From: Eledone cirrhosa
Taxonomy: Eukaryota
Length of the DNA: 64,000 nt
Direction: 5' to 3'
Assembly: GCA_964016885.1 (NCBI GenBank)
Contig: OZ024741.1
Location: forward strand, 357,244,001 to 357,308,000
The notes under the pieces were generated by a model that saw nothing but the letters and a program-made list of their open reading frames with translations, did no database searches and was not told the origin of the DNA. This document shows positions 6,288 through 31,572 of this stretch, one piece after another; position 1 is the stretch's first letter, and the number at the start of each line of letters is the position of its first letter. Both the position numbers and the translations under genes were made by a program.

Positions 6288-6539
6288 ATGTCGCTTATGG
6301 ACAGAATTTTATTAAAAAGCGACTGCATACCCCCAGACTTGGTCAGTACACTTTCTTACTTTGTCCAGTGTCTGTGCAATTTGAACAAATATGATGAATT
6401 CAAAAATTGGTTAGATAACTTGATAAAGTTGAAACCATTACTATTTGAAAAGTTAAAAAAGAATGAAGATTTTGTATTTTATCTTATTAATTTACGAATT
6501 TATGAAGAGAACTTTTGCGAGGTTTATGAACTGATTAAG
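6288..6539 (+). CDS. SIX-domain + TALE-homeodomain gene (ANHX-like), coding exon 1
   Basis: ATG at 6288; MSLMDRILLKSDCIPPDLVST...NEDFVFYLINLRIYEENFCEVYELIK. Donor AAG|GTAAGT at 6540, phase 0. ENFCEVYELIK resembles the SIX-domain GNFRELYKILE helix. Confidence 0.85.
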
Positions 6540-7922
6540 GTAAGTGCTTTCAAGTTTCTAGAGTTATGAAGTTATATTAATTTGTTTTAATGTTCACCAA
6601 CTTTTTCTCTTTGGTATTAACTGTGCTTGTATCCTACAATCATTTTCTTAAGTTAAAAAAAAAAAAATCAGTTGACCTATCTTTATCCGGAATCATCTCC
6701 ACAACTTGAAGTCATATTACTAATGTCCATCGGTGCAAGCTTTATTAATAATCTCTGTGTTACTTAATAAGCTTAATTTTCAATATTTATTTTAAACTTA
6801 AGATACCCCTGCAGTAAAAATATATTTTAATAATGTTCTTTCGATGAATGTTTCATATAGTTATGAAATTTCGATATTTTTCTTCGAATTTGATCATTAA
6901 CAATTAATGATTTTTAAAAACGCATGAAAAGCAATTCTCGAATTGCTAACATTTTCTCAAAAGTAAACGAAGTTCATAAGTTGTGCATAAGGCATGATTT
7001 TATAAGAAAAAAAATAGGGCATGTCATTGACTCCAGCAGTGTTCATCTTTCACTTGAAGTTATTTTGTAAAACAAGGATTGTTATAACGGTTACAATCCA
7101 TATTGCGTTTTTTACAAGGTTGAGCGAGTCATGTTATGTAACGAATTACGTTTATATCACCCTCATTCTGTGTTTTCCTTCTAAAATTTGGTCGTTATTG
7201 AGCAGTTTACCATTATAAAAATAGATTGTTTAATTAAGGCAAAAGTAAAAATAACGAATGTGCAGTGGGAGCTGCGTATTACGATTATTTTCTAGATAAC
7301 AACTGGTAAATAACATTAAACAGAGTATAGCAATATCCTAAGCGTGTTTGGGATCCACTAATTTTGGTAACGTTAACCGTGATTATAGTAAGCGGCTTCC
7401 ATTGAATTTATTCAGTAGGGTTTATAAAAGTGACAGTGACTTTGAGATATACATGTATGTGTGTTGTATATATCAATGTATTACACTTATGAAATGGGAA
7501 AACTACATATTTTGATCTGTGGATGACAGGAACTTGCATTGACATATTTGATCTTGTGGTTGATTTAATTTAATGCAATAAAATAAAGATGAAAATTTAT
7601 TGACTTTAATTACTATCGGTTGGTTGAATATACTCTTGCACGAGTGTTTATACCAATAACAGAAAGCATAAATAATTATCAAATTCTTCAATAAAATTTT
7701 ACTTTATTGCGTCTAATACGTAGTGACCTTAGTGTTTTGGAATGTCTATCGCATTGACATCTTCAATTCGATGTACCTGCAACTCTGAACAGTCAGGCTG
7801 AGCTGGATTAAGAACTATTAAGCAAAATATGCTCGTTTAGGGCATCAAGGAAAGAAGGCCATCATTTCATTCAAATTATATGTATTTGTCATTCTAAAAA
7901 AATTTTTGGTAAATTGTTATTG

Positions 7923-8148
7923 ACACCTGTTTCCGAGACGATACTTCAGTGAAAATATAGTATATATATATTTTTAATTTTACGGGTAGTTAGTTCCTCT
8001 ATAGGATTCTGAAAGTGAAATTTATGTTTTTCTTATGATCTTTTTAATGTGTTTTGAACGAATATGGTCTTGAAAACAGTCATAAATTATTCGTTTTCTG
8101 TGGTTCCCTCGCTGAGAACTCCGTAACACCCATCTTGGAGACGGGTGT
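7923..8148. mobile_element. MITE-like element with imperfect ~18-bp TIRs
   Basis: acacctgtttccgagacg ... catcttggagacgggtgt. Confidence 0.5.
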
Positions 8149-8214
8149 AATAATAAATAAAAAGGTACCCTTTTTTAAGACTTTATAAGAGTGGAGTGGG
8201 GATATATATATAGT

Positions 8215-8490
8215 AACACAACACTGGTGGACTGGTGGAATTTTCTACGTGACATCTGAGAATTCTTCGAGAATAATCTTTAAGAACTTAGTGGCAATGG
8301 ACATGGTATCCCAATAATTGTAGAAATTGATGGGAGAAGTTCTACAAGAAGTATGACAGAGGACAATAAAGTGAAAGACAATGGGGTTCTGAACGAAACT
8401 GAAAATATTACCTTGTTGAGGTGTCACAAAGAAAAACCAGTACATTTGAAGGAACTATTCAGCGGTGGGTTTTGCTGGGAAGCTAGATCG
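8215..8490 (+). mobile_element. Merlin (IS1595/ISXO2-like) DDE transposase relic
   Basis: Frameshifted fragments VDWWNFLRDI, IVEIDG...KFYKKYDRG (cf. VEIDESKFGKRKYNRG), YYLVEVSQRKTST and QRWVL. Confidence 0.6.
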
Positions 8491-8714
8491 TACCAGCTTA
8501 GGTAATATGAATTAAACTGCAGGCGGTGTTTACGTCCATGACACTATTGTTATAACTCCACACCCTATATTTCTACTAACAACTGGCATTGTTACACAAG
8601 TTTATTAAGTTGAGTAGACTATACAGTCAAATATTAGTTATCTGAACACAATCTCAAGGTTTCATGAACATTTAACTAGCCATTACTGCTGCCATTTTAT
8701 CTTTTAGTTTGAAT

Positions 8715-9190
8715 TATTAGAGAGCCGCTACCAGAGCAAAAGATAATATCGCGAGGATCACTGGGAAACTTCTCTAATAATTTTTTAAGTAAGCCAGCAC
8801 GATCGAAGGTTGGAAAATGTAGATAGCCGACAGATTACGGTATTTTAGGATTTTGTTCCATTCGGCTGCGGATACTGTAGCTCTAGCTTTACCGCTGCAT
8901 CGAGGATGTGGGAAGAAGCAAAAGATTCACTGTTTCGTTCCAGACAGAGCACCTGCCTCTTGACCAGGAGCACAGGGTGAGTCCGTCAGGTCTTTTCCCA
9001 TCAAATCTGGACAACCCAGACGGTTCCAAAGTTGAGGGGATGTTTGCCCGGGCCAAAACTCTCTTGAAGATGAGGTTTAGCTCCGTGTGACGCACGAAGC
9101 GACCGGCATTCGGGCGGCAAACTTCAGACCTGTACAGACGTCGGCTTCCACTCTGAGGGCAATGGAAACACAAAGCTCGTCCAATCTGAT
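8715..9190 (-). mobile_element. CRE-clade non-LTR retrotransposon relic (restriction-like endonuclease region)
   Basis: RHTELNLIFKRVLARANIPSTLEPSGLSRFDGKRPDGLTLCSWSRGRCSVWN matches the RH..N...EP......RPD RLE signature. Confidence 0.8.
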
Positions 9191-9510
9191 TAGGCCATCA
9201 CCTTTCGCCTGTCTTTTGTTGTATGTGGTCCTAGATGTATGTTTACTTGCTTATGTATTTTTTCTCTTTCTTTTCCTCTTCTTTTTTTCCCTTTCCTTTG
9301 TATATATTTTATTTGTTTGTGTTTTCGTTCTGTAAGCATTATATAATTTTATTTTTATACAACTGTGAATAAAACTACTATTATTAGAGATGAATTCAAA
9401 TTACTGCAGAACATGTAAAAATGTTAATCAAACAAGTCACCGGCACCAATCTTGAACGTCTTTATATTTAGTTATCGAAAGTGCCATTAGTTTGATTCCT
9501 GTTAGTCACT

Positions 9511-9725
9511 TTAACCCTTCAACATTTAAACCGGCCGTATCGGCCAGAATTCTCTCACCTCTTTCTGTTCAAACTGGCTGTAACTGGCTACTCATACTGA
9601 TGTTAAAGTATTGTTTTCAAAATAAATATCAAAATCTCGTAGATTCGATATTATGTGAGGTAAAGCCTTCCCCATGAAAATACAATACTAAATAATATAG
9701 AGTAATATAAATGCTAAAGGGATAA
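9511..9725. mobile_element. TTAA-CCCTT (piggyBac-like) MITE, family 2
   Basis: Ends ttaacccttcaacatt ... aatgctaaagggataa. A second copy at about 57452-57665 is nested in a family-1 MITE. Confidence 0.6.
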
Positions 9726-9807
9726 CAGTGTTAAAATAATTGTAACATAAAAATGACTGACATACAGAATAATTTAATAAAATTGATATTTTTTGTTTTG
9801 TTTTTAA

Positions 9808-10236
9808 GGTTCACGGCTTTCGTTGCCGAACGGAATAAAATCCTAAATTACTGGGAACTATCAAATAACTATTTTTCCCAGCTTGTGACATTCGAAACGT
9901 TTGGTGACGCTGAACCGCTGACAGCGAAGTTCTTCTCATCGTTAGCGGCTCACCTTACCGAGGTGTTACGTAATGCCTGTGAGGTTGCCTGTTTTTTTCA
10001 GTGCCTTAGCCTCGCCATCACCCGCGGCAATGTTGCGAGCGTGTTGGCTGGTCTCAAAATGTTTCCGTTGGTCCCTGTCGTGTGCGGTCGATTGTCGCCT
10101 TTTTGTTTTTGTGCAATATATTTGTGAGGTTCCTAGCAATAATTAATTGTATTTATTATCTGTTTACATTTGTGTTTATATTTTCATTCTGTGAGAATTA
10201 TAAACAATTTGTAATGTTATTTATACAACTGTGAAT
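9808..10236 (+). mobile_element. CRE-clade retrotransposon C-terminus and 3' UTR relic
   Basis: AERNKILNYWELSNNYFSQLVTFETFG...FFQCLSLAITRGNVASVL is the typical K..KY...ET.G...QR.S.A..RGNA terminus. The T-rich 3' UTR is similar to 9192-9385. Confidence 0.75.
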
Positions 10237-10384
10237 TCTGTAAATTATTTAAATTCAAGACAATAAAAAAAAAAATGAAATAGAAAGTAAAAATGTCAAT
10301 TTTCTTTTACCAAATCCCCTTTCCTGAATTCTGTTAATTCATTGCCGTCGTATATTTTTTACTTAAAAACATTTCTTTTAACAG

Positions 10385-10506
10385 AATGGAACATTTACAA
10401 AGCCTGAAAGATTTATTTTGCTTTGGGATAAAGCTCACTATAAGTTAAAAGAAAAAGAAAAAGGTTTCCCGTTAACCCCACTTGCACGTTTCAGGGTGAG
10501 AAAAAA
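10385..10506 (+). CDS. SIX-domain + TALE-homeodomain gene, coding exon 2 (not in ORF track)
   Basis: Acceptor tttcttttaacag|; NGTFTKPERFILLWDKAHYKLKEKEKGFPLTPLARFRVRK(K); donor AA|GTAAGT at 10507. Phase 0 to 2. Matches SIX-domain LW.KAHY.EAEK.RGRPL..V.KYRVR.K. Confidence 0.92.
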
Positions 10507-10639
10507 GTAAGTCTATTTTCCATTTGTTATTTTAATATAATAATTGTTTCTACTTTAGGCACAAGGCCAGCAAATACTCAGTGCATTACTGGTACTTTAT
10601 TTTATCGACCCCGTAAGGATGAAAGGCAAAGTGAACCTT

Positions 10640-11352
10640 AATATAATAATTTTAATATAATAATAATGAAATTTTTGTGTACAGTGTTCAGGTGCACTAC
10701 AATTCGTCAAAGGTGCATGTATAGTACATAGAATAATATACAAATGTCAGGGAAGTGAATAGTGTATGAGTCATGATATACATGTGTACGTGTGTATGGA
10801 GGGGGGATATTAGGTGTAGTGTTGGCGAATCTCATGAAGCATGGAGGTTTTAAAGGATGCAGTGTCTCGACATCTAACAACTGATGCAGGTAGTTTGTTC
10901 CATGCTTCAACAACTCTGAGCGTGAAAAGATGTTTCCGAAAGTCTTGGGAGCTGTGCTGTTTTCTGACTTTGTTGGCATGCCCACGTGTGTTAGACACAT
11001 GGAAATCAAAAAAGTGCTCAGTGTTGTTGTTGGCAAGATAGTTAATAATTTTGTGCGTGTTTACCAAGTCAGTTGCTAGACGTTGGAGCTTCAATGTATC
11101 CATGCCCAGGGAAGCAAGGCGTTCAGAGTATGGTAGGTGTCTGATGGAGGGTATTCGCTTGGTTGCACGTCTCTGAACAGTTTCCAGGTGGTCAATGTTC
11201 TGAGCAAGATAGGGATTCCAGACTGGTGATACAAATTCTAAGTGTGGCCGCACCATAGCTATATACAGCTTTAAATAGATAGCTGGAGAGCGGCTGACAA
11301 AGGTCTTGCTGAGTGATGCTAAATCAACCTCGGCCTTCTTGACAATTTAGAG
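10640..11352 (-). mobile_element. CR1-clade LINE 3' fragment in intron 2
   Basis: ORF 10810-11256 VRPHLEFVSPVWNPYL...AWNKLP; same family as 1-978. Confidence 0.9.
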
Positions 11353-12614
11353 ACGTTACTCATCTCTTCAGCCTTTGCCAAGCATAACACAGATAATAGA
11401 TATAAACACATGGGTGCACGAGAAAGTAAAGCATAGGCCATTTTTGGAGATGACACCTCAAGCCTGACATTTTGTTTGAGATGAGCTCAGACGCTCATTT
11501 TACACACATACACATACAGTCATGATAGCAGCCTTCGATAAATTGGAAATGGGAGGCTAAAATGAAGTATAACTTTTTATTTATTTATTAACGACGATGA
11601 GTATGCAGTTGTTTGATAAACTGAATGTCCTACTCACAAATTAACATGTAAGTGGTTGAGTATTCTACAAACACATATAGTCTTAGTGTAATAGTGTAGC
11701 ACAGTGTGTGACAAAGCTGGATCTTTGAATTATAGGTATAGTCCATCTGACAGCCTTCACCATACCTTCTGATTACTCTCATTTCACTCATAACACTTTG
11801 GTTGATCCGAGACTATGGTAGACTCTTGTTGAAGATGCCATGCAGTGGGATCAAACTCATGATTGTCAGGCAAACTTTTTAACTATTTAACTATACGTTT
11901 GTTAACATAATTGTTTCTACTTTTGGCACAAGGTCAGCAATTACCCCAGTGTATTACTGGTGCTTTATTTTATTGACCCCGTAAGGATGATAGACAAAGT
12001 TAACCTCGACGGGATTTGAACTCAGGCCGCAAAGGGCCATAACTCTATGCTGCAAAGCATGGTGTCTGACACTCTACTGATACTGCCAATCCACCACCTT
12101 TGTCTACATATTAAGATATGAGATTATGCTATATAAACTGGGAATATTACTGTAGAATAAGTTACAGTACAATTCAATAAAAACAAAAAGTGATATACAA
12201 GAGGGTATAGAAAATGTTACTGGGAAAAGTGTTAAACTGAAAACATTTTAGCCCCCCCCCCCTCCCTTCATACTGTACAAATATATAAAACTATATTCTG
12301 TACCATACTAAGTAAAGGCGCCTGACCTCGTCGCAACCATGAAGTTGTATGCTTGAATCCCAGACTGTAACTAGTCTCTGAACAAGACACTTCATTTCAC
12401 ATTGCTCCAGTCTACTTAGTTGAAAAAAAATAGATAGCTGCAAAGGACTGGCTTCTTGTCTTGCTTAACACCAAGGAAACTGGGATAAGCTGTGGCCTAA
12501 TGAACTTTGGAGCTTGGGAAAGACTTTAAATTTTCAAATTCCAGCATGACTTTCTGTCAGCTATATCTGACTATTTTATAATATTAATATCATGAAAATA
12601 AAGTGTATTACTAT

Positions 12615-13130
12615 TTGTAAATAAATCAGTTGACTTGAGAAACATTGGGAAAATTGAAAATGTGTCCTAATGCAAATGGCCATATTGATAGTTGATTACT
12701 ATAGATAATAGTTAAGAAAACTGAGTAAAGTGCTCCTGGAGATGGGAAAAAGTGGACAGAGGCACCTGTGAGAAAACAAACCCTACATCTCTCAGAAGCT
12801 GAGCGGGTTCCTTAGTAAAGAGCTGCTGGACACCTATTCTGTTTTTTATTAGATTTCAAGCCTGTAGCTAGATGTATAAATAAATTAGTTGATCTAAGAA
12901 GCATTGGGAAAATTTAAATTTTGAAATATATGCCTCTGAATGCAAATGACCATAATAATAGTAGTTGATCACTATGAATAATAGTTGAGAAAATCTGGTG
13001 AAATACTCCAGAGGTACTTTGCCCAATTTTCTCAACTATTATTTGTAGTGATTTGGGTAATTGCTGGCTTTGTGCCAAACGTAGAAACAATTATTATAGT
13101 TATTTACGTTGGGGGTGTACACATTTTGTA
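12615..13130. mobile_element. Two tandem partial copies of a fold-back (MITE-like) repeat
   Basis: cattgggaaaatt...aatgcaaatg.ccata...ataatagtt.agaaaa occurs at about 12643 and 12902. Fuller fold-back copy at 40650-40925; another at 22285-22430. Confidence 0.7.
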
Positions 13131-13159
13131 TTACTATTTCTTTTTTTTCTTTTAACCAG

Positions 13160-14076
13160 GTTCCCACCACCTAAAAGTATTTGTCCAACTGGTCAAAGAC
13201 CTACAAGCAACTTGCCTGAACAGGCTCGTCAAATCTTGAGGCAGTGGTTTGACAAAAATGTTGACAATCCTTATCCTAATAATGATGAAAAAAAGCAGTT
13301 AGTGGAACAAAGCGGGCTGCTATTATCTCAAGTAAAGACTTGGTTTGCCAATACTAGACGTCGGAGAAAAGTGGCACTAAATCAAACTTACAAAAGTAGC
13401 ATTAAACCAAGGTCACAAAACCAGAAGATTATCCCAAATTACTACCAGCTTAGCTGCTCCGAGAGATTAACTAATATTGAGTCTATTTTAGATACTTCTA
13501 TGAAGAAAGTTGGACTGTATCCCAATGAAGAGATCAGTGAAATGGAAATTTTACCTGTTCTAGAACCACAGGATCAGTGTTTGTTTAAAGTTAAAGAAGA
13601 TGGAAATAGTTGTAAAGAATGTATGAAAATAGTTTCAGAAAAGATGCTACAAAATCAGGAAGAAGTTCACTGCTTAGAAAATAATGAAGTGAAAATGAAT
13701 TTAGATGCCAAAGATTCTCATGGAACAAGGAACTTGGATTCAGCACTACTTGAGAATTCTTATCCTGTTTTACAAGCACAACAAATTATTGTCCCTAAAG
13801 GAAACAATTATTATAATGCGGAATCTGAACAAAATGAAATTATCATGGGAAACGTTTGTAATAGTTACAACTTATTTGTAGATGGAGAGTTTCCTGACAA
13901 TTTCAATATCCTTCAAGATTGTGTGGAATTTAAATGTATTAATAGTGATGAAAATAATTTCTCTCCAAATAGAAGCAATGAAACAATTGTTTTCAATCCA
14001 AGTGATACCACTTTGATGACAAATATTAACCCAGCTGTACCAGACAATCTATGGTCAATGTCAATTTTTCCAACAG
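13160..14076 (+). CDS. SIX-domain + TALE-homeodomain gene, coding exon 3 (homeodomain 13191-13379)
   Basis: Acceptor (t)n-aaccag|G completes AAG. Reads KFPPPKSICPTG, then [53 protein letters not shown] (L16, W19, F20, 3-aa insertion, PYP, WFAN48-51, R53), then an N/E-rich region. Probable donor CAG|GTTTGA at 14077 (phase 1). Confidence 0.95.
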
Positions 14077-14605
14077 GTTTGAAATTATTTTATTTTTATA
14101 TGTAGGCAATGAATTGACAGAGTTGTTAAAATTTTAGAGTTCAAATCCTGCCGAGGTCAACATTGCCTTTCCATCCATTCAAAGTCACTAAGAAAAGTAC
14201 CAGTCCAGTACTGGGGTCGATTCTTCCTCTATACCTCTTTCTCACTTTTTCTTTCACTTTCACTAGGTTAAAAAAGTGCCGATGACATACTGTATGTTAC
14301 AACAGCACCCCAATAGCTCCATCAGCAGTTATGGATCCATACTTACATATTCTATGTATGTAGCTTTAAATCAAGTGAATAATTTTACTTCCTTTAACCC
14401 TTTTGATACCAAACCACTTGAAACTGCTCTTGTGACTATGATTCAGATCAATATATTTTAAAGTGTTTATCATTATCATCGTTTAATGTCCACTTTCCAT
14501 GCTAGTGTGGGTTATTTGTCTAAAAACCTTCCCATTATAGTTCTATTTAAGAACCTTTGATAAATTATGTTTTTAACACCAGCTTAATGATGAGAAAGTT
14601 TTATT

Positions 14606-16595
14606 ACTAAAATCCTTTTAAATGCTTCGTCTTCATCTCCTCCTTCATCATCACCGTTTTACGTCCGTTCTTCCACGCTAGCATGGGTTAGACGGGTTGT
14701 CCTGTTGTGGGCAGTGTCTGGTCGGCTGACCATGCCTTGCTCATACAGGAACTGATCTGGCTTGATTTCTACAGCTGGATGCCCTTCCTAACACCAACCT
14801 CATTTACAGTGAGTGCTGGGTGCTTTTTCGTGGCGCCTACACGTCCACTTTACAGTGTGGGCTGGGTGCTTTTTTGCCGTGGCACCTCCACGACCACCTT
14901 GCGGGGGGGGGGGGGGGGGGGCATATTGTTTATATGCTTCAGCATGTACCCATGGGAGGTCGGGTACCCTGTATTACTGCGTGACGCCAGAAGTCACGGT
15001 CGTGTGTCATTGACTTTGAGAGGTGTAGTTGGGTAAGGTCGGCTTTTATCACCTCATCCCAAGTCATCTTGGGTCTCCCCACTCCGCGGTTTCCATCAAC
15101 TTCTAGTGCTCTGCACCTTTTTATGCAGCTGTCATCCTTCATACGCATCACATGTCCATGCCAGCGTAACCGCCTCTCCTGCACGCAGCATTTGATTCCT
15201 CTTATGCTCAGTCTCTCTCTCAATTCATTTATGCTTTGTCGTTCACGTATATTACTGTTACACATCCATCGGAGCATGCAGGCTTCGTTTCTCTCTAATC
15301 TACGTAAGTCTTCCACCTTCAGCGCCCAGGTCTCACTACCATGCAACATCGCTGTTCGGATACACGCATCATACAGTCTGCCTTTCATTCTGAGGGAGAA
15401 GCCTTTTGCAGCTAGCAGTGGTAGTAGTTCCCTAAACTTCTTCCATCCCGTTCTTACCCTAGTTATTGTACTTTCTGAGCACCCACCTCCGTTGCTAATT
15501 CGGTCACCTAGGTAGCAGAAGCTGTCTACTGTTTCTACAGGGCCCTCCCAGAGATTGGTGGTACTTGTTTCCTGTGGCTGTTTGCTTGCTGTTTCAGCAC
15601 AGCTGCTGCATGTGAATCCTACATTCTTAATTAAGCTTCCTGAGATCCCGCTACATCTCTTGTGTACCCATTGTTTGCATTTGGGGCAAAGAATGGAGTT
15701 CCTACCTACACCTTTCCTACATACTGAGCAAGGCCATTTCCCTGAGGGGATCTGGGTTCTGTTTTCTCGTCTACTTATAAGGACCTTAGTCTTTGTCATG
15801 TTGACTTTGAGGCCCTTTCTCTCTAGTCCCTGCTTCCAGGTTTGGAATTTATTCTCTAGTTCTACCATAGATTCAGCTATGAGTGCGAGGTCATCAGCAT
15901 ACAGGAGTTCCCATGGGCATCCGGTCTTAAACTCCTCCGTTATTGCCTGCAGGACTATGATGAACAGGAGAGGGCTAAGAACAGAGCCCTGGTGGACCCC
16001 AACCTGTACGCTAAATTCCTCGCTATACTCATTGCCAATCCTAACTTTGCTGACTGCTCCCCTATACATGGCTTGTACCGCTTTCACAAGCCATTCATCT
16101 ACTCCTAGTTTTCTAAGAGCCCACCAGATTACTGCACGTGGAACTCTGTCAAAGGCTTTCTCAAGGTCGACAAATGCCAAGTAGAGTGGCTTACTTTTAG
16201 CTAGGTACTTTTCCTGTAATTGCCTCACAAGGAAGAGCGCATCAGTGGTGCCTTTCCCTGGAACAAACCCAAATTGCATCTCGTCTATATTCACCCGGTC
16301 CCTAATCAGCTGTGCTATAACTCTTTCTGTTACTTTCATGACCTGGTCCATCAACTTTATACCTCTATAGTTTCCTCTATCTAGTGCATCGCCTTTACCT
16401 TTGTAGCAGTTGACAATGATGCTACTGCACCAATCTTTTGGTATGGCCCCCTCTAGTATTACCTGGTTAACGATACGTGTGGTTATAGTGTGACCTACAG
16501 ACCCAGATGCCTTCAGCATCTCGGCAGCTATACCCGATGGACCGGTTGCCTTCCCTATCTTCATATCTCTGATTGCCTTACTTACTACGCTGCCA
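14606..16595 (-). mobile_element. RTE-clade LINE, 5'-truncated, uninterrupted RT + PHD finger + C-terminus
   Basis: ORF 14939-16669; RTE homology begins about 16594. Motifs QFGF, FVDLEKAFD, GVHQGSVLSP, LYADDL, CSVC-CPKC-H-C-CSSC, RRLRWHGHVMRM, GRPKMTW. 3' tail (GAT)n. Confidence 0.95.
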
Positions 16596-16659
16596 TATTC
16601 TTGGGTGGGCTGTGGGGAAGAATCCTCAGACTTCCAGAAGGTCCAATCAAAAGTAACCA

Positions 16660-16950
16660 TCTCCGACATGTGGATAGGTTTGCTGCTGAGTGCTACACAG
16701 CAGGAATGAAGATCAGTGATGTGAAAACTGAGACACTCGTCTTCTCAAGAAAGCCTGCGTAGTACACTCTGCATGTGAGTGGAGATTCACTGAGGTAAGT
16801 GTGGAGAATTTTAAGTCCCTTTGGGCTGTGTTCACGAGTAATGGAAGGCAGGAGGCTGAATTAAGTGCAAGAATTACAGGAGTTGCTGCAGTAGTGTCAG
16901 CTTCAACACTCAATCATTAAAAGAAGGTGTAAAGGCCAAATTTGCTGTCT
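16660..16950 (+). mobile_element. Degenerate RT fragment of a second RTE family (Expander/Rex3-like)
   Basis: DRFAAECYTAGMKISDVKTETLVFSRK...VENFKSL..VFTSNGRQEAELSARI, with stops. Confidence 0.7.
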
Positions 16951-18403
16951 TCAATTGATTATTTAAAAAATTATTTTTAAATTATAGACAGTGTCTTTTG
17001 GTAGAAATATGCTAATGAAAGGGTTAAAGCGATAAATGTATTTATCAAGTTGTTTTTTTCAATTTCTGTTTTTTAAGTTAGTATATATATATTTTTTTTA
17101 ATATCGGCTCTTAAGTTTTCCGGAGTCAACTGCCTTTTATCCTTATGGGGTTAATAAAATAAGTACATAGTTGATATTATCAGCATCATCGTTTTTATGT
17201 CTACTTTTCCATGCTAGCATGAATTGAATGGATAATTTGAGACAATTCTTTGCAGCCAGATGCCCTTCCTGACACCAACTCTTACAACTCACTGAGATAC
17301 TGAATACACATGGCATAAACAATTATATCTCTCCCCACTAATTTGATGTCCTCTGCTCATGTTAAACATTATTATTATTATGGATTAATATAGGTTAGTG
17401 GATTGGTAGAGTGTGGATAATATGAATCTGGGTTCAAATCACGCCAAGGTCAACTTTGCCATTTATCCTTCCAGGGCCGATAAAATAAAGTACCAGTAAA
17501 GTACTGAAGTTGATTGAGTCACTTTTCTCTTCCTCTAAATTTGCTGGCCTTGTGCCTAAATTATAAATCCTTATGGATTAGTTTTAAATTATCTTGTATC
17601 CATATTGACTGGTGTTTTTTGTTTTAATCTATCTTACATCTTTCTTTATAATGGTAGCTAGTTTTAAATATAAAACTGGGACAAACATGAGGGATGACCA
17701 CCACAAATGAAAATGTAAACAATCTGCTTACATGCTACAACGTCATTTGTAACCATACAATAACCATGACTAAACTGATGCTCATAGGTATATCAATGTT
17801 GTGAAGTATGCTCACATGGGTTGAATGAGCTGTCATGTTATGTTATGAAGTTAGACAGATTGGGTGATCACGTGCAGCTGATACATTCCATTTTGTGGTT
17901 GGTTTCCTATGTTTGGATGCCCCTTTTTAATGCCAACCACTTTATAGCATGTACAAGGAACATTTTCATAGTACCAACACTACCACCTTCCGGAGTGGAC
18001 CGAGTGCTTTTGTGTGACATTGTTACAACCACCTTACAGGGTGGACTAGGTGCTTTTTGTGGCACCAATATGACTACCTTACAGAGTGGAATCGGTACTT
18101 TTTGTCATGGCACTAGCACTACCACCTTACTGGGTGGACTGGATACATTTTTTCATGGCACCAGCACTACCACTTTACAATGTGAACTGAGTGTATTTTA
18201 TCATGTCACCAGTGCTACCTCATTACATTTGGATGCTCATTGTGTTCTTGGCCCAGCTGGGGAAGCAATGACAAGAGTAAAGAGAGCAAGTGTTAGGTAA
18301 CATGTTACTTGATGGGTTTATTAACCACAAATATTTTACTAAATTTCGTCATACATATAGCAATGTATTTATATTATATATTTTTCACATTGTTATTTTC
18401 TAG

Positions 18404-18512
18404 ATTGCCTGACACCATCAACCAACCAGAATCTTGCCATTTGTTATGACCAAACCTCACAATGGACCAATAATATCCAGAGTGATGAAGACCCAAATAT
18501 ACATAACATAAA
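18404..18512 (+). CDS. SIX-domain + TALE-homeodomain gene, coding exon 4
   Basis: Acceptor tgttattttctag|, donor AA|GTAAGT at 18513. Phase 1 to 2, open: DCLTPSTNQNLAICYDQTSQWTNNIQSDEDPNIHNI(K). Confidence 0.75.
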
Positions 18513-19647
18513 GTAAGTAGTTTTGAAAATTTTTAATTTTTATTTCAATAGGTTTGGCACCAGAAAGGGTATCCAGCTATAAAACATTGCCTCAAAAAGA
18601 ATCCTATTGTTGCCTATGAAGTCAGTCATAAGGTCTACAAGGATAATTGTTGCTTTAGTAGGGAAAATGACCTTAAAATGTTTGTTGTTGTTATTGTTTA
18701 TTTATTTTAGATGTGTTGAAATGTACAAAAGAAACATGAACTGGGCTCTGCAAGTCTACATCACAGGTTGCCTGTCTGAGAAGGTAGTAACACTAAATAC
18801 ACACTGATATGGAGTAGAGGGGGCTTTTTAGTTCAACCAACCTCTAGTGATGGTGGTAAAATAAAATGCAACCTGCACATGCTGTAAGATATACACAACA
18901 ACAGAGTTGACAGTTTTTCCTTTTCTTTTCATATGAGTGTACCAAGTTATTTGTGTATATCCAGTTTAGAATATTTATACTATTCCTGAATGTTGTAAGA
19001 GACGATTATAAGGGTTGGTACCAGGAAGGGTACCTGGCTGTAAAACATTGCTTCAAAAGGACCCCATGATGAGTTAGAAGTCTATCGTGAGGCTGACAGG
19101 GCTAACTCCTTTAGCAGGGAAAATGGCTTTAAAACTGTTGATTTTGTTGTTGTGTACCAGGTGATAACTAACTGAGTGATGTAATGAAGAACTGATACAG
19201 AGTAGAATGAACTCTTTGGTCCTCCTGCATGGGACAACCTCTCTTGTGTTGGTGGCACAATAAAATGCACTCAGTACACTCTGTAAAGTGGTGTTAGGGA
19301 AGGCATCCAGCTATAGAAATCTTGCCATAAAATGGAACATACGAATGAGGCATGAGCTCCATAAGCAGCCTCATAGACTGTCCATCAAGGAAGGCCTTAA
19401 AGAATTAATGCAATGTAAAGGAGATTCTTAGCCCTCTCACATGGATAACTCTCTCTAAGGATAGTATTATCATAACAGGCTTCAAGTCCACACTATAAGA
19501 GATACACAAGAAAAGAGTTGTCTAGTCTTCTCTGTTGTTGTGTGCTAGGTGATGCAAACATGTTAGCATAGGAAAACATGTAAATAAATGATGACTGTTA
19601 ACTTCCTGTTAGTAAAATAATGTAATTTTTTAACATATTGCTTATAG

Positions 19648-19726
19648 ATTATCAGCAACCATACCAAATAGAAACAACAGTACCACTATTATATTAGTGG
19701 AGAGAAAAGAACCCCAGGCTTGTGTA
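19648..19726 (+). CDS. SIX-domain + TALE-homeodomain gene, coding exon 5
   Basis: Acceptor attgcttatag|, donor |GTAAGT at 19727. Only the phase-2 frame is open, matching exon 4: LSATIPNRNNSTTIILVERKEPQACV. Ends phase 0. Confidence 0.7.
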
Positions 19727-20259
19727 GTAAGTAAAATCATCCACTTAACCCTCTCATTAACATATTTCTAATGAAAGACACTGCCTATAATTTTCAATTC
19801 ACTTTGAAAATACTGAAGAATTTGCAGAGGTTTAGTAATATAACTGACTTGCTTATTATTAAACTGGTGTTGGAACATAACTTAACAACACTTCATATGA
19901 TGGAAAGTTTTTAGATAAATATAAATACTTTTAAACAAAAAGATTTGTATTGTTGAAATAGAATCTGGTGTTTGGAACCTAATGAAAGGTTTTTACATTG
20001 AATTATTGTGGCAGGCATTTAGATAAATGTAAACAATTTAAACTAAATAGCTTAGTATCATAAAGCCAAGAGCTTTTAGTATTAAAAGGGTTAATCAAAT
20101 AAGATAACCTTACTCTCCTAGCTATAAATGCTAAGTCTGACTTAGATTTGATGATTTGAACTAAAATATGGTTGAGTGATTAAGAATTTCACATTGCAGT
20201 CATGAGGTTTGGGGTTTGCTTCCAATGTGTGGCATCTTGGGCAAGTGTCTTTACTAATG

Positions 20260-21335
20260 GTAACTAGACAAAGAAGAATGGCTTGTGAGAGCAGTACAAG
20301 CTATGTTCAGAGGAACTGCCAGTAAAGTGAGAGTAAGTAATGAGTTTAGTAAAACATTCAGTGTGTCAGTAGGCATTCATCAGGGCTCAGTCCTCAGCCC
20401 ACTCCTGTTTGTTATAGTTCTCCAGACCATAACAGAAGTTTAAGACTGGCAATCCAAGGGAACTTCTATATGCAAATGACCTGGTTTTTATAGCTAAATC
20501 AATGGAATAAAGAGAATAAATTCTGGCATTGGAAACAGAATTAGAATCAAAAAGAATTAGAGTAAACTTGGGAGTTGGGACCCTGGCCCCTTCGGGGAAG
20601 TGGATATGCTCGATATGTAAGAAAGGAATAGGTAGAAACTATATATGATGTACACAATGTAAATCTTGAGTACTCAAAGGGTGTAGTAGGATAGCCGGCA
20701 GACTAACAGAAAAGGTAGACTGTATGTAGGAGATACACAGGGATTGTTGGTGGTAAGAGCTTAAGTGAAATAAACTTTTTCCAATCTGCAGAAAGTTCCA
20801 TAGCTTCAGCTACCTAGGTGATCTAATTAGCAGTGGGGGGAGGCTGCTCTGAGAGTATAGTAGCTAGAATAAGAATAGGAAGGAAAAAGTTCAAGGGGCT
20901 ACTACTTCTCTTGACGACAAAAGGTTGGCTATATGATACCTGTGTGCAATGTTGCATTGTAGTGGGGCATAAGCAGTAAATGCAAAGGATATGCAAAGGT
21001 AGTTTTGATGGATGTGCAATGTTAATATGCAAAAATGCATGGAAGAGAGAAAAGTTTGGCATAAGAGGAATCAGATGTAATAGACAGGAGAGAAAACAGG
21101 TGGTATTGACATGTAATGCATATGGAAGGTGATCGTTGAGTGAAAAAGTACTGAGAAATCCCAGTGGAAGGGAGCCTCGGTAGAGGAAGACCAAAGAAGA
21201 TCTAGGCAGATGTGAGAGCTGATCTCAAATTGCAGAAGCTTACAGAGATGAAGAAGGATGACGAGTGGAGAGATGCTGTGCTGGAAAAGACTCATCCAAC
21301 CCATGCAAGCATGGAAAAGCTGACATAAAATGAGT
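20260..21335 (+). mobile_element. Old degenerate RTE LINE (RT to 3' tail)
   Basis: EEWLVRAVQAMFRG...VGIHQGSVLSPLLFVIVLQ...ELLYANDL, with many frameshifts. Ends in an acccatgcaagcatggaaaagc tail. Confidence 0.85.
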
Positions 21336-21344
21336 ATGATTTTA

Positions 21345-21745
21345 TCATCATCATCAACATCATCATTATTTTACGTCTGCTTTTCCCTGCTTGCAAGGGT
21401 GGAACAGGTGCTATTCAACACAGCATCTCTCCACTTGTCACTGTCCTTCGTCATCTCCTCTGTGAGCTTCAGCGATCTGAGGTCTGCTCTCACCACCTCC
21501 GCCCATGTTTCTCATGGTCTTCCTCTACTGCGTCTTCCTTCTACTGGGATTTCTTGGCACTTCCTTACCCAGCGGTCATCCTCCATGCGCATCACATGTC
21601 TATACCATCGCAGTCTTCTCTCCCGCACACTACAACTTATACCTCTTATACACACTTTCTCTCTCAACTCATCTATGCTTGGTTGTTCACGCACATTGAC
21701 ATTACACATCCAATGGAGCATGCTTGCTTCATTTCTCTCCAGCAG
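21345..21745 (-). mobile_element. RTE LINE 3' fragment, tail-to-tail with the previous copy
   Basis: LERNEASMLHWMCNVNVRE...RRLRWYRHVMRMEDD...RGRP; (CAT)n tail. Confidence 0.85.
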
Positions 21746-22005
21746 TTGCTGCCTATGTCTCACTACCATGCATAATCATCACCATTTTATCTCTATTTTT
21801 CTTGCATAGTTTTGAGGCTTACTATGCAAAGCATATTTTTTAACAATACCAAAGTATCATTGTAAGTCCTTTGGTAATATTGAAAAGTAGTTACCAAAAA
21901 TGTTAAAAAGAATATTATAAGTGTTATTTAACTTGTCTCTCCAACGAATATATATTTTATATTCTAATTTTTATGTTATTTACAATGTGTTTTTTTATTT
22001 TTCAG

Positions 22006-22065
22006 CCACAGAAACGCCTTGAAGAAGAAATTGCTCAAGTTTTATTAAATCTCTCCACTGTTTGA
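22006..22065 (+). CDS. SIX-domain + TALE-homeodomain gene, terminal coding exon 6
   Basis: Strong acceptor ttttttatttttcag|, phase 0: PQKRLEEEIAQVLLNLSTV*. TGA at 22063-22065. Joined CDS 1539 nt = 512 aa. Confidence 0.75.
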   Translation, partial: PQKRLEEEIAQVLLNLSTV

Positions 22066-22514: not shown

Positions 22515-23315
22515 TAACCTTACATCTCTCGAATATAGATGTTATAAGCTTGTTTAAGTATATCAAATAAATACATTTCCCGAATATAAATGGTATAAGC
22601 GGGTTTAAGTATATCAAACAAACACATTTGAATATTGATGTTATAAGAGTATATAAGTCTATCAAACAACCACATCTCCCGAATATAGGTTTTATAAGAG
22701 TATTTAAATATATCAGACAAACACATCTCCCGAATATAGATGTTATAAGTGTATTTAAGTATATCAAACTAATACATCTCCCGAATATAGATGTTATAAG
22801 CTGGTGTAAGTCTATCAGACAAATACACCTCCCGAATATAGATGTTATAAGCTGGTTTAAGTATATCAAATAAATACATCTCCCGAATATAGATGTTTTA
22901 AGCTGGTTTAAGTATATCAAATAAATACATCTCCCAAATATAGATGTTATAAGCTGGTTTAAGTATATCAAATAAATACATCTCCCAAATATAGATGTTG
23001 TAAGCTGGTTTAAGTCTATCAGACAAATACATCTCCCGAATATAGATGTTATAAGCTGGTTTATGTATATCAAACACATTTCCTGAATATAGATGTTATA
23101 AGCTGGTTTAAATATATGAAGCAAAGGCTTACATCTAAATATAGATATGATAAACTGGTTTAAGTATATCAAACACATTTCCTGAATATAGATGTTATAA
23201 GCTGGTTTATGTATATCAAATAAACACATCTCCCGAATATAGATGTTTTAAGCTGGTTTATCATACAAACACTTACATCTCAATAATATAAGTGTTATAA
23301 TCTGGTTTATGTATA
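22515..23315. repeat. 51-bp minisatellite, about 15 copies, each with an acatct-N9-agatgt hairpin
   Basis: Unit aatacatctcccgaatatagatgttataagctggtttaagtatatcaaata. Equivalent positions at 22826, 22877 and 22928 show a 51-bp period. Confidence 0.95.
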
Positions 23316-25832
23316 TGACCTGGAATTTTTTACATTAATAATTTTTACAATTTTGAATTTTTCTTTATAATTATGTTTTAAGTGATTTATTTCACTTTTT
23401 CCATCTCCCCCAATAATATTTTTTGAAAGTTAATGGTTGAGTAAACTTTCATATATATATATAGCATTGTGTATGACATCTTTGACGAGGTTTTTTTAGT
23501 CCATGTCTTTTAACCCTTTTGTTACTAAATTTTTAATGTAAAACACTGCCTATTATTTTCAATTCATTTTGAAAATAATATGGAATTTGGAAGGATTTAG
23601 TAATATAACTAACTTCCCATTATTAAGCCAGTATTTGGAACATAAAGCATTTTATATAAATTATGATGGAAAGTTTTTAGATAAATATAAACACTTAAAA
23701 ATAAACAACTTTATATTGTTGAATTATGTAGTTTCAAAAAGATTTTTTTGATTTTTTTAATGTATTTTTTTCTTCACTATCTTGTTCCACTTTTCTCTGT
23801 CTGTCTGTGTGGAGGAAATTTGGCCTGATATCCCCATAACATTTTTTTAATTATATACCTTGAAGCAGTGCTGGAGTATAAGTGTGTTTACTTATTTGTA
23901 AGTAAACATTTCTGTTTTGAATTTTCAACATGAATAATGTTTTACATTTTTGAAATTTTTCTGTATAAAATGTTTTGAGTGATTTATTTCACTTTCATCT
24001 CCCGAAAATATTGTATCTAAAAGTTATTGTTTGAAAGTTTAATAGTTATATTGGAGTGTTACTATAACAACACCCCTAACCTTTCCACAAATACTGCATT
24101 CTGTGACTTTCTTTGTATTTTCTTTTTGATCTTGTGTGTTGTAATCATTTTTTTTATGTAGCAGAATTATTAGAATATTATACAAAATGTGTTATGGCAT
24201 TTATTCTGGGTCTGTACGTTCTGAGTTAAAATTTTGCTGAGGCCAACTTTGCCCTTCATCTTTTGAGGTTTGATAAAATACCAGTGAAGGACTGGTGTGA
24301 GATGAAAGTTGATTTAATCCAGTTTCCTCTTTCCCTAATTTGCTGACCTTGTGCCTAAAATATAAACTATTATTTTTCCTGTTCACTTTTTTGTTTTCTC
24401 TTCAGTGATAGAAATGAGTTTAAGGAACTGGAGGGTATGCCATGATGTCTGAGGCTGGAGGTGGGAAGGATGATGTGGTTGACACTATAAGCTCCTCTCA
24501 TCCAAGTCAATGAGAAACTGAAAAATAGTGGGACGTCTGACTTCCCTCCAGCACTTCACCACCACCATTTCCATCACTGCTAATCTTATCACCGTAGATT
24601 GATGAATCAGCAGTTTAACCCTTTCATTAACATTTCTAATGAAAGACACTGCTTTTATTTTCATATCATTTTGAAAATAATCAAAAATTTAGAGGGATTT
24701 GCTAAATATAACTAACATTCTTTTTCTTAACCTGGTGATTGGAACATAACTTAATAAAGGTTCTTACTGAATTATGATAGGTCTTTAGATAAATATAAAC
24801 ACTTAAACAGTTCTGAACTATGGGTTGTTTCAGACTGTTTTTGTATCAAATGGCTTTGTAGTTATTGTTTGATAGGCTTGGTCAGTTCTGTTAAAATTGA
24901 CACAGAGCAGGAACTGATTGACAGACATATTTGACGATCATTTCTAGCCCTGACTTACCTCTTTATACTGGGTTGGGCTATTTTTATGGTTTAAACTTAC
25001 AACTGGTAACATGATTGAGCAAGTCCATGAACTGTGTAACTGTCTACTTGCCCTAAGAGTTTTTTAGTTGCCTCCCTGCCCTTTTTTACAAAAATCATTG
25101 AAGATTAAGTTAATTGTTTCTACTTTAGGCACAAGGCCAGCGATTTGGGGGTGGGGGGGGAGTTGATTAAATCGATCTCATAAGGATGAAAGGCAAAGCT
25201 AACTTCGGCTGGATTTGAACTAAGATCGTAAAATGGCGTAACCCTATGCCATAAAGCATATTGTCCGATGCTCTACCGATACTGCCAATCTACTGCTCTT
25301 TTGATTTGTTCTGACACTAGGTGTAATTTTATTAATTCAAATTTTGGAGTTGTCTCCCCTCCTTTTTTGGTCAGAATTAATATCATTATATTAATATTTT
25401 TCTCCATTATTGATGTAATTTGATTAAAATTTCTTGGCCCATTACATTAGCAACACCATAAACTAAATAATGGAACAATTTCATTTTATTAATGTGCTAT
25501 ATGTATGACAGTTCCAACAACAAATTTTTCATTTGATATGATCAGCAGAAGAGCCTGCTTGTGAAATTAATGTGCCAGTGGCTGAGCATTCCACAAAAAC
25601 GTGTACCCTTAATTTATTCTAAGGGAGATTCAGCATAACACAGTGTATGAAAAGGCTGGCCTTTTGAATTACAAGTACAACTCATTTTTGACAGCTGAGT
25701 GAACTGAAGCAATGCAAAATAAAATGCCTTGCTGAAGGACACAGCATGTTGCTTGGAATTGAACTCACAAATTTATGAGCATGACTGAATTACCCTAACC
25801 AAACCACATGTCTTCATTTACTATATATATAT

Positions 25833-29017: not shown

Positions 29018-31572
29018 CATCATCATCATCATCATCAACGTTTAACGTCCGTGTTCCACGCTTGCATGGGTTTGGACGGGGGTAGTCCCACTTGAGGCAA
29101 GCTCGCATAGGACTGTCTGGCAGGTTTTCTACAGTTGGATGCCCTTCCTAACACCAACCACATTTACAGTGTGGGTCTGGGAGGTTTTTACCGTGTTGCC
29201 TACACGGCCACATTACAGCGTGGACTGTGTGTTTTTTTTTTGTCGTGACACCTACACGATCTCATTTGTTTCGGCCTGGATGGCGCGGCACCAACATAAC
29301 TTTACATAGAACGGGGTGGTGGCGGGACGGGGTGTATTTTGTTAGAGATGCCTACTGGCAAGGCGGGTCTTCTCTGTTACTGAGTACCGCCAAAGGTCTC
29401 GGTCCAGTGACATTGTCTTGGAGAGGTGTAAGTGTGTGAGGTCGGAGTTTATCAGCTCATCCCATGTTTTTCTAGGTCTGCCTATTCCGTGGCTACCGTC
29501 TATCTTTATTGCCCTGCACTTTGTTATACAGCTATCGACTTTCATACGCATCACGTGTCCATACCAACGCAGCCTTCTCTCGAGTAAACAACATCTGATC
29601 CCTCTTATCTCTAATTTTTTCCTTAGTTCGTTTATGCTTTGCCGTTCACGTATATTACTGTTACACATCCAGCGCAGCATGCAAGCTTCGTTCCTCTCTA
29701 GTCTGCGTATATCCTCTGCACACAATGCCCAGGTCTCACTACCATGCAACATTGCTGTTCGTATGCAGGCATCGTACAACCTGCCTTTCATTTTTAGGGA
29801 GAACCCTTTAGCAGCTAATAGTGGTATAAGCTCTCTGAACTTTTTCCAACCAGTTCTGACTCTAGCTACAGTACTTTCAGAGCACCCTCCCCCACTGCTG
29901 ATTTTATCGCCCAGGTAACGGAAGCTGTCCACTATTTCTATAGAACCCTCTGCGCAATTGAAAGAGCTAGTATTTTGTGGGCACTTGCTGCTACTTATTG
30001 CACCAGAACACCGGCCACATGTAAAATCTATGTTCTTAGTTAGCTTACCTGTGATCCCACTACATCTTTTATGCACCCATACTTTGCATTTAGGACATAA
30101 AATGGAGTTTCTACCTACGCCTTTCCTACACACCGAGCACGACCATTTCCCAGAAGGGACCGCCGCCTTGTTTTCTTTCCTACAAACTAGAACTTTGGTC
30201 TTAGCCAGGTTAATTTTAAGTCCTTTTGACTCTAGGCCGTGCTTCCATGTTTGGAATTTCTTCTCTAGCTCGGCCATTGATTCCGCTATGAGTGTCAGGT
30301 CGTCTGCGTATAGGAGTTCCCATGGGCAGCCTGTCTTGAACTCCTCTGTTATAGCCTGAAGGGCAATAATAAATAGTAGGGGGCTGAGAACAGAGCCCTG
30401 ATGGACGCCAACTTTTACGCTAAACTCTTCACTATATTCGTTGTTAATTCTAACCTTGCTGACTGTTTCTTTATACATGGCTTGTATAGCCCTCACAAGC
30501 CATTCGTCAACGCCTAGTTTTCTAAGAGCCCACCAGATAATGGAGCGGGGGACTCTGTCGAAGGCTTTCTCCAGGTCGACAAAAGCTAAGTAGAGGGGTC
30601 TACCTTTAGCTAGGTACTTCTCCTGTAGTTGTCGTACTATGAAAAGGGCGTCTGTGGTGCTTTTGCCTGACACAAACCCGAACTGCATTTCATCTAGGTC
30701 AATTCTCTCTCTGATTAGTTGCGCTATTACTTTTTCCGTGACCTTCATGACCTGGTCGATTAATTTAATGCCTCTATAGTTACTTCTATCTAGGGCGTCT
30801 CCTTTACCCTTATAACAGTTAACGATGATGCTGCTATGCCAGTCCTCCGGAACAACCCCATTCTGTACGACTTGGTTAACTATGCGGGTGACCATGGTGT
30901 GTCCCACCGTGCCAGATGCCTTCAGCATCTCAGCAACTATTTCCGAAGGCCCAGCCGCCTTACCCGTCTTCATATCCTTGATTGCCTTACTTATTATACT
31001 CCCCTCGACTAACACTGCTGGTCCCTCTATCGGGTCGATATGGGGGAGACTGTCTTTCTCCCATTTATTCTCCTCATTTAGTAGCCTTTCATAGTGACAC
31101 TTCCAAGCTACCTTCTTATCAGTGTCGGTGATGGCAAGTATGCCATCATCGTTAAGTACACACTTCTCCCCGACAATATCACGGTTTTCCTTGACGCATT
31201 GCCTGGCAATCCTGAACACCTCACGTTTTTGGTCATCGCGTTGTAGAACATGCTTGAACTTTCTTTCCTCAGCTTCCCTTCTTGCTAAGTACACTTCTCT
31301 CCTAGCTTCCCTCCTGGCCACTTGATAGTCTACTCTACTTCCCCCATCCCGCCATACTTTCCAAGCCTGCTTTTTGGCCTTAATTGACCCCTCCACCCTA
31401 CTGTTCCACCACCAAGTTACTCTCCTCCTGCCTACAGGCCTGCTCCAGCCACAGACTTCGTCTGTCGCCAACAGCAGGTTTGCTTTCAGAAATTCCCACT
31501 GTCCCTCTATATTGTCCGATTCTAGATGCTCTTCCTTACTGTCGAAAGCATCAAGTAATATGCTTTGAAATT
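29018..31572 (-). mobile_element. RTE-clade LINE (second subfamily), 5'-truncated, 709-aa uninterrupted ORF
   Basis: TWWWN linker, RT motifs (FVDLEKAFD, GVHQGSVLSP, LYADDL), C4HC3 PHD finger, GRPRKTW. (GAT)n tail; (TA)n on both flanks. No endonuclease domain is present. Confidence 0.95.

Follow-up and report, generated by a model that had tools for sequence, protein, structure and literature searches.

A single-copy octopod homeobox gene belongs to a SIX-domain and TALE-type homeodomain family that ranges from jellyfish to hemichordates

Homeobox classifications recognize three SINE families and regard oyster TALE5/TALE-XIII as a novelty of lophotrochozoans, with human ANHX remaining an orphan. 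The gene csSix-X of Craspedacusta sowerbyi was described in 2012 (Hroudova et al., PMC3340352). The available sections of that paper present it as conserved across Cnidaria only, obtained by RACE and expressed in gonads and manubrium, and put forward the same two hypotheses of origin that are weighed below; in those sections a loop extension is not mentioned, with 0 occurrences of 'loop' and 'three amino'. Oyster Cgi_TALE5 and spiralian TALE-XIII were named by Paps et al. (2015, PMC5322547) and Barton-Owen et al. (2018, PMC6118893). TALE-XIII was classed by its homeodomain only, as a lophotrochozoan clade with weak support; in the table its 'other domains' cell is empty, and no cephalopod member appears (PMC6118893). 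The accessible part of PMC5322547 places oyster TALE5 expression after the trochophore stage and makes no mention of the gonad. ANHX (LOC647589) was left unclassified in the human survey, is found only in placental mammals according to Zhong and Holland, clusters with SIX genes (PMC5928047), bears Ala50 and Arg54 (PMC3141429 supplement), and is reportedly expressed in oogonia and spermatogonia.

We analyzed a gene at positions 6288..22065 of the window, the whole 64,000-nucleotide stretch of Eledone cirrhosa DNA. Quite probably, taken as a whole, it represents in octopods, with one copy, a family that combines a SIX domain with a TALE-type homeodomain, ranges from jellyfish to hemichordates, stands apart from the three canonical Six families, likely includes vertebrate ANHX, and would act by the mechanism proposed at the end of this account. 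The comparisons below establish its exon structure, both domains, the single copy, its place in the family and the range of the family among named sources. Six exons join into a 512-aa frame that ends in a stop codon and has no internal stop, and the five introns between them all have GT-AG borders and are of phase 0, 2, 1, 2 and 0. The features are as follows:

6288..6539, + strand: exon 1 (aa 1-84), with the start codon and the N-terminal portion of the SIX domain
10385..10506, + strand: exon 2, encoding a C-terminal portion of the SIX domain and matching Pfam SIX1_SD and Argonauta
13160..14076, + strand: exon 3, end of the SIX domain, homeodomain and a long variable region
13191..13379, + strand: 63-aa TALE-type homeodomain (aa 136-198), Homeobox_KN E 2e-17
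13260..13268, + strand: loop between helices 1 and 2 extended by three residues, with the register inside the loop set by convention
13347..13349, + strand: Ala at homeodomain position 50; Thr47 and Arg54 are likewise Irx-like
18404..18512, + strand: exon 4, weakly conserved
19648..19726, + strand: exon 5, weakly conserved, its support coming chiefly from the junction with exon 4
22006..22065, + strand: exon 6 with the stop codon, 12 of 17 residues identical to Argonauta GAB1609711.1
22024..22056, + strand: short C-terminal hydrophobic motif of the acidic residue/Asn-x-Ala-x-x-Leu-x-x-Leu type, common to many members of the family, csSix-X among them

The predicted Argonauta protein GAB1609711.1 (P0002) aligned with all six exons in order, with identities over aligned positions of 57, 75, 40, 42, 33 and 63% for exons 1 to 6, respectively. 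This colinearity and the reconstructed frame bear out the exons, GT-AG introns, phases and length given in the preliminary description. Exon 1 matched the Argonauta protein with 63% identity over 68 aa (E 1e-25), and exon 2 with 30 of 40 residues identical. Exons 4 and 5 taken singly gave no significant match (shuffle p 0.077 and 0.25, respectively), and when joined across their junction they reached a score attained by none of 3000 shuffles. In word-indexed searches, exon 3 had P0001 as its sole match (6 candidates) and exon 1 had none among 46 candidates. A tblastn search with GAB1609711.1 revealed no further exon, including any missed one that would account for the extra residues of that protein near exon 4. 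The exon 2 acceptor was unremarkable, in the top 25% of AG sites, when scored with approximate frequencies. Among the pieces listed, DNA contigs from one sample covered exon 1 and exons 3-6, and in exon 3 they showed two variants, both synonymous. The three listed sequencing runs cover introns as well as exons, indicating that they are DNA of one sample, which bears on neither splicing nor expression; no RNA run was listed, and the gene model is predicted from DNA and protein comparison.

Exon 2 alone matched Pfam SIX1_SD (model 79-107, 27.5 bits with a cut-off of 27.4), and exon 3 matched Homeobox_KN, the two Pfam hits that had been expected for this gene. By itself, exon 1 had no Pfam match and retrieved only helical-repeat clusters under the recognition threshold in an ESM Atlas search; it weakly resembled the Six genes of the same genome (shuffle p 0.009-0.022), and helix 1 of the SIX domain is poorly conserved in octopod proteins. 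A profile built from the three Six genes of this genome aligned colinearly with residues 52-195, over junctions 1 and 2 (E 1e-31), and the best PDB match of the Eledone protein was SIX1 (4EGC, E 1.6e-24). The SIX1_SD match and the profile alignment uphold the SIX-domain identity originally read from exons 2 and 3, and Pfam, the same profile and the family scan all place the domain in the SINE (SIX/SO) class.

Between helices 1 and 2 the homeodomain carries the hallmark of the TALE class, three additional residues and then PYP. Its best PDB sequence matches were PKNOX1, PBX1 and MEIS; it aligned without a gap to PKNOX1/PBX1/MEIS2, and with a three-residue gap to the genome's Six genes and SIX1 4EGC. 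The W-x7-PYP spacing and Ala50 noted at first sight are present in the spliced protein. Within the family, W-x7-PYP occurs in 28 of 31 rows and W-x6-PYP in the other three (L035-L037), and the SINE-class Lys50 is replaced by Ala in the Eledone protein and by Ala (25/31) or Ser (6/31) in the family rows. Like canonical SINE proteins (Six1/2, Six3/6 and Six4/5), the Eledone protein has a SIX domain directly upstream of the homeodomain and a residue other than Arg at position 5. It differs from them in its 63-aa homeodomain, three residues beyond 60 aa, in Ala50 and Arg54 instead of Lys50 and Gln54, in having two introns inside the SIX domain, and in lacking a subfamily tetrapeptide, with RPTS at positions 3-6. 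With Irx/Mkx it shares the loop extension, PYP, Ala50 and Arg54, and with Irx Thr47, whereas the SIX domain, N-terminal arm and helix 2 set it apart, as does the lack of an IRO box, for which no match to the consensus quoted in PMC3340352 was seen by eye C-terminal of the homeodomain. The gene is outside the standard families, as had been proposed, being neither Six1/2, Six3/6 or Six4/5 nor a canonical TALE gene. An isolated LWSM (aa 422-425) is conserved in neither P0001 nor GAB1609711.1.

An exhaustive search covered 1.84 billion protein representatives. Among the 150 matches listed, 20 also fit a SIX-domain profile at E<0.001, and all 13 family proteins scanned carry SIX1_SD and Homeobox_KN above cut-off. 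Named members come from molluscs (Argonauta, Gigantopelta, Haliotis, Patella, oysters, Mizuhopecten and Sinanodonta), a nemertean (Lineus), a scorpion (Centruroides), hemichordates (Saccoglossus and Ptychodera) and a hydrozoan (Craspedacusta); the named sources of the 30 proteins looked up include no chordate, insect, sponge or ctenophore. The sequence searches returned no ANHX protein. Cgi_TALE5 corresponds to K1P313 (P0204), in which SIX1_SD is present at E 6.5e-15, and Patella TALE-XIII has almost the same homeodomain as P0122. By eye, divergence is apparent in the Spirobranchus TALE-XIII rows, which may not belong to the family. The family comparison was made without amphioxus 'Atale' and spider 'SINE-un1'.

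A tree of SIX domain and homeodomain gave 100/100 support to the split between 24 family rows and the three Six genes of this genome, and a tree of the SIX domain alone split 19 family rows from them, likewise with 100/100, after 5 of 27 rows under 60 aa had been left out and with one row untrimmed; in both trees, built without ANHX, the outgroup was limited to these three canonical Six genes. When a profile was built on five members from outside the molluscs, the Eledone gene scored 192.8 bits versus 114-127 for the Six genes, namely Six1/2, Six3/6 and Six4/5, which lie elsewhere in the genome with uninterrupted frames from SIX domain to homeodomain. No paralogue was found in genome searches. 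Oyster genomic ORFs P0176/P0178 have introns 1 and 2 in matching positions and the same exon 2 boundaries. Intron 1 recurs at an identical position in locus L034, a sequence that clusters with probable cnidarian rows.

AEP44002.1 (P0138) carries the WFAN and the RRTN tetrapeptide given for csSix-X in the available text of PMC3340352. Like the Eledone protein, it and Nematostella XP_001633591.1 have a SIX domain with a WFAN homeodomain and no Six subfamily tetrapeptide, and csSix-X also shares the side of the 100/100 split, the loop length and the C-terminal motif; the Eledone gene differs in being bilaterian and in its longer C-terminal region. It has the SIX domain and extended-loop WFAN/WFSN homeodomain by which Six-X/TALE-XIII can be informally recognized, and clusters with csSix-X and oyster TALE5, apart from canonical Six. 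The octopod gene is one more member of this family, not a new kind of system. The possibility, raised in advance, that the architecture had already been classified proved partly true: csSix-X and spiralian TALE-XIII had been named earlier, but a formal family with this architecture was not found. Judged from sequence, csSix-X-type SIX genes and TALE-XIII join into one family older than the cnidarian-bilaterian split, in effect a fourth SIX-domain lineage, with ANHX indicated as its vertebrate end; we did not find this synthesis in print.

How the two domains came together was addressed with homeodomain-only trees of 60 columns, with the loop removed, and 61 rows, then 38 after 23 were dropped; their TALE rows were partly picked by likeness to the query. 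In these trees the family did not emerge as a clade of its own (AU p 0.049), a grouping of family+Six+Irx/Mkx was not rejected (AU p 0.15), and an ancient fusion cannot be separated from an ancestral relic. We give about even chances to the relic, likewise raised at first sight, in which the SIX domain and TALE-type homeodomain are ancestral and canonical Six lost the loop and gained Lys50. Consistent with this, Six fell with the family and Irx/Mkx inside the atypical homeodomains once the loop columns were removed (95/88, and 96/93 without the typical outgroup), and family+Six was not rejected (AU p 0.19). In addition, the SIX domain continues into the homeodomain with no intron at the boundary, Gly1 of the homeodomain is common to the family and Six, and helix 2 is nearer Six (48.7) than Irx/Mkx (38.3). 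However, the root shifted between trees, Six placed with typical homeodomains outside all TALE was not rejected either (AU p 0.40), the choice of TALE rows favored likeness to the query, and no sponge or ctenophore member was identified. Somewhat short of even is the probability that, before the cnidarian-bilaterian split, the SIX domain of a Six gene was joined to an Irx/Mkx-like homeobox, one of the two options proposed in the available text of Hroudova et al. (PMC3340352). Helix 3, with Thr47, Ala50 and Arg54, is nearer Irx/Mkx than Six (summed BLOSUM 58 vs 38), and family+Irx/Mkx was not rejected (AU p 0.14), whereas the intronless boundary, the continuous Six alignment through it and the Six-like helix 2 speak against a fusion.

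Sequence comparison also makes it likely, if by a smaller margin of confidence than for the family itself, that ANHX is orthologous to these genes. The top ESM Atlas cluster for residues 15-197 of GAB1609711.1 was 'ANHX protein (Fragment)' (score 0.95; 222/256 features, 99 members, SIX1_SD 100%), ahead of all other clusters shown with SIX domain and homeodomain. ANHX resembles the Eledone protein in combining SIX1_SD with a homeodomain bearing Ala50 and Arg54, and human ANHX differs from it in lacking PYP and in its Six-like Phe8 and Asn47. By hand alignment, its loop exceeds that of Six by one residue and the Eledone loop by three, making the human loop two residues shorter. By hand count over positions 4-57, the human ANHX homeodomain is identical to the Eledone protein at 17 of 54 positions, to the genome's Six1/2 at 21 and to the family's commonest residues at 22, so that raw identity does not discriminate. 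The loop, Phe8, Asn47, the similar identity to Six1/2 and to the family, and the restriction to placental mammals would all fit a separate, fast-evolving duplicate of a canonical Six gene, the ancient invertebrate family being real but lost in vertebrates. We consider this rather unlikely, given that the Atlas places the ANHX cluster first, that Pro9, Lys28, Ala50 and Arg54 are common to ANHX and the family as against the genome's Six genes, and that loop shortening also occurs within the family (L035-L037).

A lophotrochozoan or cephalopod novelty formed by recent exon shuffling, as first suggested for this gene and in keeping with the count of oyster TALE5 among genes of lophotrochozoan origin in the accessible part of Paps et al., or a chance join of unrelated exons, is exceedingly improbable, because cnidarian, hemichordate and scorpion members exist (unless mislabelled), the Argonauta protein is colinear, and csSix-X was reportedly obtained by RACE.

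Tentatively, the cnidarian-bilaterian ancestor may have had four SIX-domain genes, the fourth of which (Six-X = TALE-XIII = ANHX) would have kept the ancestral TALE loop and Ala50, persist as a germ-line regulator in animals from jellyfish to humans, and record an origin of canonical Six from a TALE homeobox. If ANHX is indeed the vertebrate end of this family, the homeobox repertoire of ancestral animals grows by one family, and ANHX, a human gene used to drive stem cells toward oogonia, acquires invertebrate models. The long-standing question of how SINE and TALE homeodomains are related also becomes testable because the family carries features of both.

The Eledone protein is predicted to be a sequence-specific transcription factor, in which the last SIX-domain helix and the homeodomain would contact DNA together as a single unit, following the model for SIX1. 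Six-type cofactor binding, suggested at first sight, may also occur, with Eya the candidate partner. With Thr47/Ala50/Asn51/Arg54, the recognition helix of the Eledone protein may read an Irx/TALE-like site instead of a Lys50 Six site, and the expression of csSix-X and ANHX points to the gonad or germ line as its most likely field of action. The conserved C-terminal helix could dock a co-regulator, most likely a co-repressor. The pattern of the C-terminal motif, drawn after seeing the sequences, fits 15 of the 31 family rows, and at most 2 of 500 shuffles per row.

The predicted six-exon model of Eledone cirrhosa is a real gene, in which a SIX domain (SD) is followed by a TALE-type homeodomain (HD). 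The exons that the preliminary description had placed at 6288-6539, 10385-10506, 13160-14076, 18404-18512, 19648-19726 and 22006-22065 on the plus strand were all found there, and its account of GT-AG borders, of intron phases 0, 2, 1, 2 and 0 and of a joined frame open over 512 aa held throughout. A Pfam scan identified SIX1_SD in exon 2, barely above the cut-off, and Homeobox_KN in exon 3. Residues 52-195 aligned across junctions 1 and 2 with a profile of the genome's three Six genes (Six1/2, Six3/6 and Six4/5, which lie elsewhere in the same genome), the sole gaps being a deletion of two residues and insertions of one residue and, in the loop, three. A predicted Argonauta hians protein (GAB1609711.1; P0002), which is itself a gene model and not a transcript, is colinear with all six exons; exons 4 and 5 matched it weakly when taken singly, and their support comes across the exon 4/5 junction. 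The gene was single copy in the genome searches run.

The gene lacks the Lys50 of canonical SINE families and is kept out of them for this reason, which upholds, for SINE, the earlier placement outside the standard families. It is a new member of an already noted but unformalised family, informally Six-X/TALE-XIII, with a synthesis attached. A profile search with exon 3 and one relative against 1.84 billion representatives gave 6860 matches at E<=0.001, and 20 of 150 among the matches listed also matched a SIX-domain profile (E<0.001). SIX1_SD and Homeobox_KN were both above cut-off in all 13 proteins scanned. Named members come from molluscs (cephalopod, gastropod and bivalve), the nemertean Lineus, the scorpion Centruroides, the hemichordates Saccoglossus and Ptychodera and the hydrozoan Craspedacusta, under database labels such as 'sine oculis-like', 'SIX2-like', 'ceh-34-like' or 'uncharacterized'. 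Another 20 loci came from a metagenome scan; in L032-L037 the SIX-domain tail is joined to a homeodomain, as confirmed by Pfam for four. In the SD+HD tree, 24 family rows were split from the three Six rows with support of 100/100, and the same split appeared with the SIX domain only; in the trees built, the closest relative was Argonauta. A family profile built without molluscs scored the gene at 193 bits, versus 114-127 for the genome's own Six genes.

Position 50 of the homeodomain is Ala or Ser in 31 of 31 family rows, and W-x7-PYP is present in 28 of them. Three metagenome loci (L035, L036 and L037) have a loop one residue shorter (W-x6-PYP) and form a separate long branch, so loop length varies within the family. 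A short C-terminal hydrophobic motif was seen in 15 of the 31 rows, by a pattern drawn afterwards and with several rows near-duplicates. Two intron positions within the SIX domain are common to the Eledone and oyster genes and absent from the genome's own Six genes.

For cnidarians, both the domain architecture and the two ideas on its origin are already in print. Hroudova et al. 2012 (PMC3340352), in the passages concerned, describe csSix-X and a Nematostella relative as having a SIX domain, WFAN and no subfamily motif, and propose that it either arose by fusion of Irx with Six or is an old gene from which both descend. Paps et al. 2015 (PMC5322547) counted oyster TALE5, a TALE gene that they left unplaced, among the novelties of lophotrochozoans, and the relevant part records no second domain for it; the protein (K1P313; P0204) carries SIX1_SD. 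Section 11 of Barton-Owen et al. 2018 (PMC6118893) assigned it to TALE-XIII, a clade that barely satisfied the criteria of that paper. In its supplement, the homeodomains of Spirobranchus TALE-XIII A and B carry Gln50 and, by eye, do not resemble those of oyster, limpet, Lingula and Capitella, so the clade as published may lump together two different things.

ANHX is somewhat likely to be an orthologue of this family. A search of the ESM Atlas with the Argonauta SD+HD ranked an ANHX cluster first (score 0.95). Passages of two papers treat ANHX as unclassified and found only in mammals (Zhong and Holland, PMC3141429) or list it with SIX genes (Paps and Holland, PMC5928047). In the human sequence printed in PMC3141429, the homeodomain resembles the family at Pro9, Lys28, Ala50 and Arg54 and Six at Phe8 and Asn47, and its loop is +1, not +3 as in the Eledone gene; hand-counted identities are 17/54 to that gene, 21/54 to Six1/2 and 22/54 to the family's commonest residues. 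A literature search in which subscription journals were mostly absent, and in which the term 'Six-X' misses its own source paper, found neither a link between Six-X, TALE-XIII and ANHX nor the bilaterian-wide range of the family. Main-text passages of PMC2959044, PMC6125248, PMC1779571, PMC11067881, PMC10726417 and PMC5094009 do not describe the family, and their supplements could list members. Joining these three names and the bilaterian-wide range is a worthwhile synthesis.

As to origin, AU tests on the homeodomain rejected neither fusion nor relic. In loop-free homeodomain trees, Six fell among the atypical homeodomains together with the family and Irx/Mkx, but the root was unstable. The recognition helix, in which Thr47 and Arg54 are invariant, is nearer Irx/Mkx than Six; homeodomain helix 2 is nearer Six than Irx/Mkx. 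Because helix 2 is Six-like and the alignment is continuous over the domain boundary, a relic would be slightly favoured over a fusion.

According to parts of a review of SIX1 (PMC4901127), SIX-domain helix 1 binds EYA, and helix 6 is modelled as binding DNA jointly with homeodomain helix 3. Conservation within the family is highest towards the C-terminal end of the SIX domain, which may therefore likewise form a joint DNA-binding unit with the homeodomain; helix 1 is, by eye, Six-like in cnidarian and hemichordate members but drifted in octopods. Given Thr47, Arg54 and Ala/Ser50, the site bound would be TALE/Irx-like and not a Lys50 site. The C-terminal motif is a putative docking site for a co-regulator. 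The product is predicted to be a Six-type protein in action, with a TALE-type recognition helix. Expression has been reported in gonads for csSix-X (in passages of PMC3340352) and in oogonia and spermatogonia for ANHX, and by analogy the Eledone gene may have a germ-line role.

The window also contains the following features.
10653-11356, 32477-33456 and 1-989: another repeat, three copies, 88-94% identical, one in intron 2
14939-16744 and 29342-31633, minus strand: LINE-type reverse transcriptase (RT) frames, PHD-like finger directly after the RT domain
53263-55119, plus strand: LINE-type RT frame, PHD-like finger directly after the RT domain
22521-23316: 51-bp minisatellite, about 16 copies, starting 450 bases beyond the stop codon
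46422-46856 and 49947-50381, minus strand: 144-aa open frame, the same in each duplicate copy, no Pfam match

The RT frame at 14939-16744 sits in intron 3 and is 95.6% identical to that at 53263-55119. The frames of the three-copy repeat gave no Pfam match and look like LINE fragments. Several AATAAA matches 3' of the gene fall inside the minisatellite. The 144-aa frame, which looks like a duplicated exon of a neighbour gene, lies in a 2.5-kb tandem duplication (46016-48530 and 49547-52052; copies 98.9% identical) with a TA microsatellite between the copies; contig depth of 13-17 over it, versus 5-10 immediately upstream, is a weak sign that it is real. The same genome also has two Tgif-like genes (L010 and L011; C3, C13) and a further non-canonical TALE homeobox (L007; C1) in which an intron interrupts helix 1.
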